A stretch of 64,000 bases of DNA from Octopus vulgaris. Taxonomy: Eukaryota. Shown piece after piece: positions 13,948 through 35,240 of this stretch. Position 1 is the stretch's first letter, and every line of letters starts with the position of its first letter. The DNA is taken from assembly GCA_951406725.2 (NCBI GenBank), contig OX597815.1:149358001-149422000 (forward strand). The letters run 5' to 3'. The notes beneath the pieces are model-generated. The model was not told where the DNA came from and searched no databases. It saw only the letters and a list, made by a program, of their open reading frames with translations. A program made the position numbers and the translations under genes.

Positions 13948-14494
13948 TAATTATATCAATTAAATTTGCACTCATGAAACTGTCAGATTCATAACAGTCC
14001 TGGAATCAAATTAGTTTTATTTTAAATGATGCTTTTTGTTACTTTAGATCTTCAGACCATTTATAAATTGATAAGAGAATTGAGAGAATGATGAGAATTT
14101 TTCTATTTAAATTCTTAAATAGTTTCTTTTAGTCGAGGCCATTATTGTGTGAAATCCCAAGTGTGTCCGCTGCAATATCACAATTCAATTTACTCTCTCA
14201 AGAAAAGAAAAGCCATAGTTTATAACGCCGTTGTATACACAATATAGCTGACGTGCGACGTAAATATTCATCAAAGTTCAACTGAATTAGGGCTAACTAA
14301 TAGCTAAACAACAGGACAAACAATGGCGGCAAGACTGGTTGCCTAAATACAGAAAAAAACATTTTTGTGGAGAAGCAATACATTCGATCTAGTTTAAATT
14401 TTCACAGAGTTTACTCAGTGCCCAATGAATTTATATAAATAAAATAAAATATAAAAACAAAATTATATAAACAAACAAGCAACATAGTAGATAT

Positions 14495-14926
14495 TACAGT
14501 TCTGTATTTAAGAGATGAAGAATTATGTACATTATTTACATTAATTACATTTGAGGGATATCTGTCCTCATCTTGTTTGTTGTTAACACAACGTTTCGGC
14601 TAATATACACTCCAGCCTTCAAAAGTTGCCTTGGGAAAATTTGGAACCTGGGTTCTCATTCATAAGTTATTATTGTTGTTGTTATTACTATTGATGTCAA
14701 TGCCTAGAATCGAACTCGGAATCTTGGGGGTTAGTAGCCCAGCGCTGTGAACCCCTACACCATAATAATAAGAACATCGAAAAATACCTTAGGAATGAGA
14801 AGCCAGATTCGAAATTTCCCCCAAGACACGTGATAAAGGCTGGAGGGTATATCAGCCGAAACGTTGTGTTAAAAACAAAAAGATGAGGACAAATATCCGT
14901 CAAATGTACGTAATGTAAATAATGTA
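14495..14926 (-). mobile_element. Composite tRNA-head + hammerhead-arm element, copy 1, with inverted arms
   Basis: Arms 14495-14668 and 14775-14926 are reverse complements and each carries AGGCTG-loop-(C/T)AGCC-GAAAC-GTT-GTGTT. Between them lies a minus-strand tRNA-like unit (14696-14763: TGGTGTAGGGG...GGGCTACTAACCC...GAGTTCGATTC) and a short (AAT/AAC)n. Confidence 0.85.
14825..14870 (+). ncRNA. Minimal type I hammerhead ribozyme motif (PLE-type), core mutated
   Basis: GACAC-gTGATaA-A-GGCTG-loop-CAGCC-GAAAC-GT-T-GTGTT. Stem I GACAC/GTGTT, stem II GGCTG/CAGCC, palindromic stem III ACGT. Confidence 0.65.
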
Positions 14927-15004
14927 AGTAATAGTATATATTATTAGTGTTTTCGCTCAAAGACGGAGAAAAGTTATGGAGTAAATGCTACATCTTGAAA
15001 GTAA

Positions 15005-33150: not shown

Positions 33151-33242
33151 ACGCTCTATATATCGTATAATGATAAAGAATTGAGTAGGGAGACTGTGGA
33201 AGATTTCAACTCCCAATACATCATATTTTAAGGTATATTATC

Positions 33243-33517
33243 TACATTATTTATATTATTTATATTTGACAGATATTTGTCCTCATCTTGTTGGTTGTAA
33301 ACACAACATTTCGGCTGATATACCCACCAACCTTCATTAGGTGTCTTGGGAAATTTTGAACCTTGCTTCTCATTCCTAAGGTATTTTTCCAAAAGTGCGA
33401 AAAATACCTTAGGGCATGTGGCGTAGAGGTTAAGACCACGGGCTACTAACACCAAGATTACGAGTTTGATTCCAGGCAGTGATCTGAAAAAAATACTCCT
33501 ACTACTACTACTACTAC

Positions 33518-33553
<36 letters not shown>

Positions 33554-33585
33554 CAACATCGAAACAACCTTATGAATGAGAACCA
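33243..33585 (+). mobile_element. Composite tRNA-head + hammerhead-arm element, copy 2
   Basis: Inverted HHR arm 33243-33390 (minus: GACAC-CTAATGA-AGGTTG..CAGCC-GAAAT-GTT-GTGTT). Then tRNA-like head 33413-33486 (TGGCGTAGAGG..GGGCTACTAAC..GAGTTTGATTCCAGGCAGTGA), (TAC)n(TAA)n, and the start of the sense arm truncated at about 33585. Confidence 0.85.
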
Positions 33586-34931: not shown

Positions 34932-35104
34932 TACAGCTCTGTATTTAAGAGATGACGAATTATGTACATTATTTACGTTTGATGGATATTTGTTCTCATC
35001 TTGTTTATTGGTAACACAACGTTTCGGCTTATATACCCTCCACTCTTCATCAAGTGTCTTGGGGAAATTTCGAACCTGGGCTCTCATTCCTAAGGTATTG
35101 TGGA

Positions 35105-35183
<79 letters not shown>

Positions 35184-35236
35184 ATTATTATTATTATTAT
35201 TATTATTACTATTATCATTATTCAGGTCACTGCCTG

Positions 35237-35240
<4 letters not shown>
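34932..35240 (-). mobile_element. Composite tRNA-head + hammerhead-arm element, copy 3 (5'-truncated)
   Basis: Minus strand: ATTCCAGGCAGTGACCTGAA (3' end of head), (AAT)n at 35105-35222, then a full arm with GACAC-TTGATGA-..-GCC-GAAAC-GTT-GTGTT ending CTCTTAAATACAGAGCTGTA. Confidence 0.85.

Follow-up and report, generated by a model that had tools for sequence, protein, structure and literature searches.

The window (the whole 64,000-nt stretch of Octopus vulgaris DNA analysed here) holds three loci (locus 1, 14495-14926; locus 2, 33237-33585; locus 3, 34932-35240) assembled from a tRNA-like head with A and B boxes, a spacer of the (AAT)n type, and an arm that carries a minimal type I hammerhead ribozyme motif (Table 1). 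A sequence-only reading of the window had ascribed this architecture to all three loci. It is complete at locus 1; locus 2 has the head and an inverted arm, but its sense arm is only a stub of ~27 nt, and locus 3 has a full arm, but its head is reduced to the last ~20 nt, without A or B box. The boxes were found at locus 1 (minus strand) and locus 2 (plus strand), and the four arms, 82-87% mutually alike, have the four differently mutated hammerhead cores that were quoted for them, none being intact. The short piece of arm start at the junction of locus 2 likely reflects a template switch. No gene-like open frame of at least 170 aa occurs in the window (1-64000), where the long frames are mostly microsatellite runs, and no reverse transcriptase (RT) or endonuclease (EN) sequence was found there with the protein P0003 as query. 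The arm of locus 1 (14599-14489) is 53% identical to the N-terminus of P0003.

Table 1. Positions of the component parts of the three window loci, and of the cassette of a related locus (L445, own coordinates)
Feature	Locus	Position	Strand	Remarks
Target-site duplication beside tailed arm	1	14484..14496	-	13 nt, 1 mismatch
PLE "tail", ~27 nt	1	14495..14521	-	on one arm per pair only; encodes part of ORF N-terminus
Sense arm	1	14495..14671	-	first ~52 codons of Poseidon-type ORF; ATG 14657-14659
Minimal type I hammerhead of sense arm	1	14585..14628	-	core mutated
(AAT/AAC)n spacer	1	14672..14689	-	
tRNA-like head	1	14690..14764	-	A box 14752-14762, B box 14707-14715
Inverted tailless arm	1	14779..14926	+	5'-truncated partner copy; hammerhead 14825-14870, core mutated
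Target-site duplication beside tailless arm	1	14931..14943	-	
Tailless arm, inverted relative to head	2	33237..33389	-	hammerhead 33300-33345, core mutated
Piece of arm start at junction	2	33398..33413	+	16 nt
tRNA-like head	2	33412..33491	+	A box 33419-33429, B box 33464-33472
(TAC)n(AAT)n spacer	2	33492..33558	+	
Sense-arm stub	2	33559..33585	+	ATG 33576-33578; cut off by CA repeat
Sense arm and tail	3	34932..35105	-	tail about 34932-34958; hammerhead 35013-35058, core mutated
(AAT)n spacer	3	35106..35220	-	
Last ~20 nt of head	3	35221..35240	-	5'-truncated, without A or B box
tRNA-like A/B-box cassette	L445	4816-4899		upstream repeat near 2025-2110

In the genome searched (2.8 Gb, 227 contigs), sixty 10-kb stretches, sampled at even spacing along the eleven largest contigs, hold 11 loci with an arm, giving a genome-wide estimate of ~51,000 (95% range 26,000-92,000). 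Head and arm are linked as had been supposed, an arm being present at 21 of 29 loci selected by the head. At least 0.6 of the unit's sampled words are present in sequencing runs under six organism labels; the head motif is absent from the viral contigs searched, and a metagenome scan with a single protein gave no match.

The head can be aligned over its whole length with host tRNA genes; among about six isotypes sampled, tRNA-Arg is best (z 6-7), with Cys and Thr close. The most frequent forms of its A and B boxes agree with the consensus, and most variation in them is CpG decay. The alignment and the boxes together support the tRNA-like character that the sequence-only reading had proposed. 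ARAGORN calls no tRNA at the heads, the predicted fold of the head is not a cloverleaf, and Infernal with Rfam, suggested earlier as a check, finds neither tRNA nor hammerhead in a well-preserved copy; nor is either among the 150 of 303 Rfam matches to the window that were listed.

The hammerhead has every part of the minimal type I form known from Penelope-like elements (PLEs): CUGANGA-H, a G-C closing pair in stem II, GAAA, a palindromic stem III and a short stem I. Its assignment to the PLE type is supported by this fit to the published consensus, in which, by the accessible text of PMC4209133, a base ahead of stem II is unpaired and stem III is palindromic. The intact form that had been deduced from the mutated arms exists, as 887 exact copies of a 45-nt motif genome-wide versus 0 for the reversed control, and of 199 arms that had been chosen without regard to the core, 95 keep it intact; the stem covariation looked for as a further sign of a ribozyme is absent from the family. 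Among these 199 arms there is neither covariation nor extra conservation, and no stem column has a common alternative, as is expected of copies decaying after insertion. The sole common non-CpG core variant lies at the free N7 position (39 of 199), and core columns depart by 6.4%, versus 5.3% in the 5' part of the arm, so that core and arm decay alike. The predicted fold contains stems I and II, its z of -1.4 being unexceptional. A second, commoner minimal hammerhead family accounts for five of six descriptor matches in 600 kb of evenly spaced sequence (L073-L132), versus none in five shuffles.

The genome contains a protein-coding element of the Penelope/Poseidon type whose terminal repeat (pLTR) is the head-(AAT)n-arm unit, its parts being in the order head-(AAT)n-ATG/hammerhead/tail-RT-GIY-YIG-stop-~30 nt-head-(AAT)n-arm. 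The partner RT was found beside six arm-selected loci when PLE proteins were searched against them. The RT + GIY-YIG frame stops ~30 nt upstream of the head, and the end of the ORF runs directly into the head at 17 of 30 RT-selected loci (one of the 17 being the query locus itself); only 19 of the 30 include the end of the ORF. At the other end, an arm lies directly upstream of the ORF and in frame with it in 13 of 30 loci selected by the N-terminal part of the frame, the reading frame being continuous at these loci from an ATG near the arm start through the hammerhead and the tail into the ORF. The peptide encoded by the arm is 48% identical over ~100 aa to the N-terminus of P0003, a distant relative of 847 aa (E 4e-32). 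Locus L406 has a head-arm unit on both sides of the ORF (head-arm-ORF-head), L395 begins at the head and enters the ORF, and these are the only two copies seen with a 5' head joined to the ORF; L401, L403 and L405 have the ORF, then the head, then the arm. A coding PLE that shares the arm, such as was to be sought, is present in the genome, and mobilisation by a Penelope-like RT, as first proposed, is supported by the occurrence of the same unit in an element that encodes RT and GIY-YIG domains.

This element is an EN+ PLE, with RT followed by a C-terminal GIY-YIG domain in a single frame. Its protein has an RVT_1 match, and its EN region aligns with homologues carrying PF01541, the Y, G, R and E residues being invariant; the Pfam GIY-YIG profile gives no match on the element's own protein, and no CxxC linker of the Neptune/Nematis zinc-finger type is seen before the EN. 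In trees drawn without a named Poseidon reference, the protein groups with RT/GIY-YIG proteins, apart from the Neptune-like pair of the genome. It is on account of the RT match, the aligned GIY-YIG residues and this placement that the element is called Poseidon-type. Every coding copy seen is broken (the longest open frame in a fetched locus is 569 aa), and the departure per column is ~7.5% across aligned copies. A recent-looking Neptune-like family with open 781-aa frames was rejected as the partner, as were the other GIY-YIG families and a Hydra-like family, all having nothing in common with the arm. Among the PLEs of this genome, the Neptune-like family (L061-L072) has many open RT + GIY-YIG frames of that length, overlapped from upstream by a further frame (up to 479 aa), and its 3' end carries a degenerate motif resembling a hammerhead; the Hydra-like family (L183-L212) is abundant, its open frames reach 1,091 aa, and a hammerhead is absent within 1.5 kb of the frame end.

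About nine in ten heads have no ORF sequence upstream. No alignment column separates these short copies from the ORF-linked arms, and their divergence is alike. The short copies are therefore not a separate SINE lineage: a tRNA-SINE would be distinct from its partner and share only the tail, whereas the short unit here is the pLTR of a coding element without diagnostic columns, and the free non-autonomous lineage envisaged by the sequence-only reading gives way to a PLE that works like a SINE source. At six loci (L216, L226, L230, L234, L239, L240) the head and (AAT)n are followed by unique sequence without an arm; either these have lost the arm, or they represent a simple SINE of head and (AAT)n, such as the donor is presumed to have been. 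Where head and arm lie far apart, the long spacer is due to later insertions. A repeat of ~570 nt, likely an (AAT)n-targeting element, lies inside the (AAT)n spacer at seven loci (L022, L029, L152, L160, L283, L304, L330), in a single orientation relative to the microsatellite. The (AAT)n spacer also contains 3' fragments resembling a LINE with a restriction-like endonuclease, of the R4/Dong type (L023:987-1500, L028:1659-2266).

The copies are usually head-to-head pairs that are dispersed rather than arranged in tandem arrays. Exactly one tail of ~30 nt is present in 89 of 92 pairs with outward-facing arms, none in three and two in no pair; in the sets not selected on the tail, the figure is 70 of 73. 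The tailless ends break off among 9-nt repeats, whose number varies. Flanking direct repeats of 10-15 bp are present at 22 of 36 pairs and, in a second set, at 38 of 57 (60 of 93 together), versus 18 of 1,260 and 6 of 684 mismatched pairings (24 of 1,944 together). An inverted, truncated partner together with a tail of 30-40 bp at one end is a signature of PLEs in the available part of PMC8557442, and it is this arrangement that the 89 pairs display; neither head-to-tail tandem monomers released by cleavage, as in retrozymes or Sm-alpha, nor the equal terminal inverted repeats and fixed-length duplications of a MITE are found. Paired arms also have 29 non-CpG variants in common, versus 8.7 +/- 2.8 (at most 18) in 1,000 shuffles of 73 pairs, although fold-back copying or gene conversion could also be the source of this sharing.

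Among loci not picked by the head, 95 of 145 have their 5' end between -10 and +10 of the tRNA-like start, and 16 of 145 extend more than 30 nt upstream of the head into the coding element. The stop rate per nt is 0.025-0.09 at the head start versus 0.0007-0.003 at -300 to -31 and at +21 to +55. The element also lacks an ancestral run of four T (T4) in its 2.5 kb, no four consecutive columns of 2,480 having a T majority; the copies (88.8 kb) have 38 T4 runs at scattered positions, each being present in at most 4 of 46 copies. Of 21 related PLE frames from metagenome records, 20 have 2.3-8.5 T4 per kb, and the density is about 1-4.6 per kb in the other PLE frames and in the LINE frames of the genome; at the LINE rate (~1 per kb), the chance of zero T4 in 2.5 kb is ~8%, and single broken frames have no significant deficit versus synonymous shuffles (P 0.13-0.62), so that the lack of T4 is suggestive as evidence of Pol III. 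Together, the position of the 5' ends and the absence of an ancestral T4 run make initiation by Pol III at the head likely on sequence grounds. RNA reads, which are unstranded and carry a related organism label, give no direct sign of Pol III transcription: since 74-77% of them run on into unlike sequence, and no pile-up of starts or ends occurs on the unit, they fit read-through. It also counts against Pol III that the translation of an uncapped transcript would be left unexplained.

In the reading that we consider probable, the unit is the terminal repeat of the coding PLE, its head is likely a captured Pol III promoter, and the transcripts are likely copied by the element's own RT from an internal start into mostly short, SINE-like copies. 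Capture of such a promoter would explain tens of thousands of short copies beginning at the head. A short tRNA-SINE with an (AAT)n tail would have inserted between the stop and start codons of a tandem ancestor and would have taken over transcription initiation, with Pol III starting ~0-10 nt before the tRNA-like +1. At a new site, the PLE protein would nick both target strands ~12 bp apart, and two cDNAs, primed on the same uncut RNA at the tail end and within the 9-nt repeats respectively, would join head to head. RT starting in the first pLTR would yield a solo head-arm copy, and starting in the second an ORF-bearing copy (about 1 in 10); because internal initiation would copy whichever pLTR the protein engages, most products would be solo units. 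Tailed solo copies with intact boxes might then be retranscribed and behave as SINEs.

A possible second case is locus L445, a tandem PLE identical to P0119 with an apparently intact tandem unit, in which an A/B-box cassette between the stop codon and the hammerhead is followed by a short AAT-rich stretch. Its cassette resembles tRNA genes (z about 5) more than it does the head of the main element (z 1.8), to which L445 is distantly related, on a separate branch of the tree. L445 is the one related frame without T4 in the RT-EN part; its whole frame has 2 T4 runs versus 4.1 +/- 1.6 expected, which is not significant. The case is a single example noticed after the fact, being one of 16 related loci with enough downstream sequence, and such a box pair arises in 4 of 5,000 shuffles. 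The 5' part of the frame also has a perfect hairpin (L445:2261-2276) that is similar to the histone 3' stem-loop, though below the Rfam threshold (E 2.1). That a coding retroelement switched to a tRNA-derived Pol III promoter for its whole 2.8-kb RNA, purged terminators from its frame and sheds its own terminal repeat as a SINE by internal RT initiation, with an independent capture of the same kind in one or more further Penelope-type lineages (L445), is a broader proposal that we advance only tentatively.

The 5' pile-up is 20 nt wide and lies on a short self-complementary stretch at the edge of the head, where stalling or fold-back of the cDNA could also be its cause. On this basis the head might be a passive relic, only long Pol II transcripts serving as templates and the RT stalling or folding back at the hairpin to produce both the pile-up and the inverted partner. 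We regard this as rather unlikely, although the hairpin sits exactly at the pile-up, many junctions are near-perfect palindromes centred on it, the variants common to paired arms and the read-through character of the RNA reads would be accommodated, and an internal promoter of the Pol II type is reported for Drosophila Penelope in the available text of PMC2377424. Some nine in ten cDNAs would have to stop within ~40 nt at a hairpin of 4-5 bp; a tailed partner cannot arise by fold-back of a tailless cDNA; the hairpin loop is found in both orientations relative to the tail, in a small and partly query-biased set; and the intact boxes, the lack of T4 runs and the second PLE with boxes in the same place would go unexplained.

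The remaining part of the original proposal, processing by a dimeric hammerhead, finds no support. In a set of arms picked by their 3' part, 67 of 93 span the cut site to the arm start, and truncations within ~4 nt of the site (4 of 26 versus 2.6 expected) are near the number expected. In a mixed set, truncations near the site are mildly in excess (10 of 37 fall at arm positions 84-103), but 5' ends defined by cleavage were rejected as its cause, the excess being absent from the set picked by the 3' part. RNA read depth rises by ~15% across the cut site, a step to which junction reads from truncated copies can give rise, and read ends do not pile up there. Since most copies extend across the cut site, at which no RNA read ends accumulate, hammerhead processing is unsupported, and the hammerhead is likely uncut in the RNA that is copied. 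These observations bear on a further explanation, that of an independent non-autonomous tRNA-SINE with a borrowed PLE terminus, freed by a dimeric hammerhead in the manner of Schistosoma Sm-alpha, in which a Pol III promoter and a hammerhead are joined (PMC6765202, accessible text). The lack of ORF sequence upstream of most heads, the core kept in nearly half of the unselected arms, and the truncation excess of the mixed set and the depth step would suit it; yet the head belongs to a coding element from whose arms the short arms are inseparable by any column or by divergence, the copies are dispersed pairs without tandem arrays, the set picked by the 3' part shows few truncations at the site, and cleavage would sever the head from the template, yet most arms of that set span the site. 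It is improbable. Terminal inverted repeats of a DNA transposon (MITE), which outward-facing arms flanked by duplications resemble at first sight, and chance nesting of head and arm are refuted, as the sequence-only reading had anticipated for the DNA transposon, by unequal ends with one tail per pair, duplications of 10-15 bp rather than a fixed length, variably truncated interiors, an arm that encodes the N-terminus of an RT protein, and a head that follows directly on the end of the ORF at 17 of 19 loci, and we give them practically no credence.

Repeat libraries would class these copies as SINE or MITE. Octopus tRNA-derived retroposons, the families OK, OR1 and OR2, were reportedly described by Ohshima and Okada in 1994, and that work, Repbase or Dfam may already contain the head or the short form, under a SINE or Penelope name. 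The literature searched yielded no PLE with a tRNA-like head, and words of the head or the hammerhead were not found in the searchable supplements of PMC8557442, PMC4209133 and PMC10886601.

The animal non-LTR retrozymes, as described in the accessible parts of bioRxiv 10.64898/2026.07.22.740005 and PMC7229834, are, like the short copies here, non-coding hammerhead repeats derived from the pLTRs of PLEs, but they are head-to-tail tandems that self-cleave to circles; the terms tRNA and Pol III are absent from the available text of the preprint. Sm-alpha and Sj-alpha of Schistosoma similarly have a Pol III-type promoter followed by a type I hammerhead, but are tandem and freed by ribozyme cleavage, with no coding parent described in the available text of PMC6765202, whereas the element here is dispersed and uncut, with the minimal PLE ribozyme in the pLTR of a coding element. 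The TRIMp3 elements Cassandra, Helenus and Ajax have in common with it a Pol III cassette derived from a small RNA in the terminal repeat (a tRNA cassette in Helenus), for which a SINE insertion was proposed; they are non-autonomous LTR elements, whose autonomous partners are argued to need Pol II (PMC10886601, accessible text). That text describes terminal repeats with Pol III cassettes only from non-coding elements, whereas here the cassette lies in the terminal repeat of a coding element, of the PLE class. If Pol III drives the element, a PLE shedding its own pLTR would be a new route of SINE birth, and its transcript a rare Pol III-made RNA with a long reading frame.

The closest parallel is Poseidon of Anolis carolinensis (PAc; PMC11167929, available portion), which likewise has a single frame of RT and C-terminal GIY-YIG, a pLTR with the ORF start and a minimal hammerhead, a tail between two 3' ends and an uncut RNA template. 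It differs in that the pLTR of the element here begins with an A/B-box head and (AAT)n, that most copies start there, that the ORF is without T4 runs, and that the ATG is ~35 nt before the hammerhead core rather than at stem II; the words tRNA and polymerase III are absent from the main text of the PAc paper. According to the same portion of that work, the anole RT starts internally, 111-118 nt into the ORF, a pair of starts brackets the tail, both strands are cut, and insertion is normal in ribozyme mutants, hammerhead cleavage not being needed. The tens of thousands of short, easily read insertions in the octopus genome constitute an in vivo test of the PLE insertion mechanism, and their one tail per pair, ~12-bp duplications, single-source arms and uncut hammerhead match this in vitro result.
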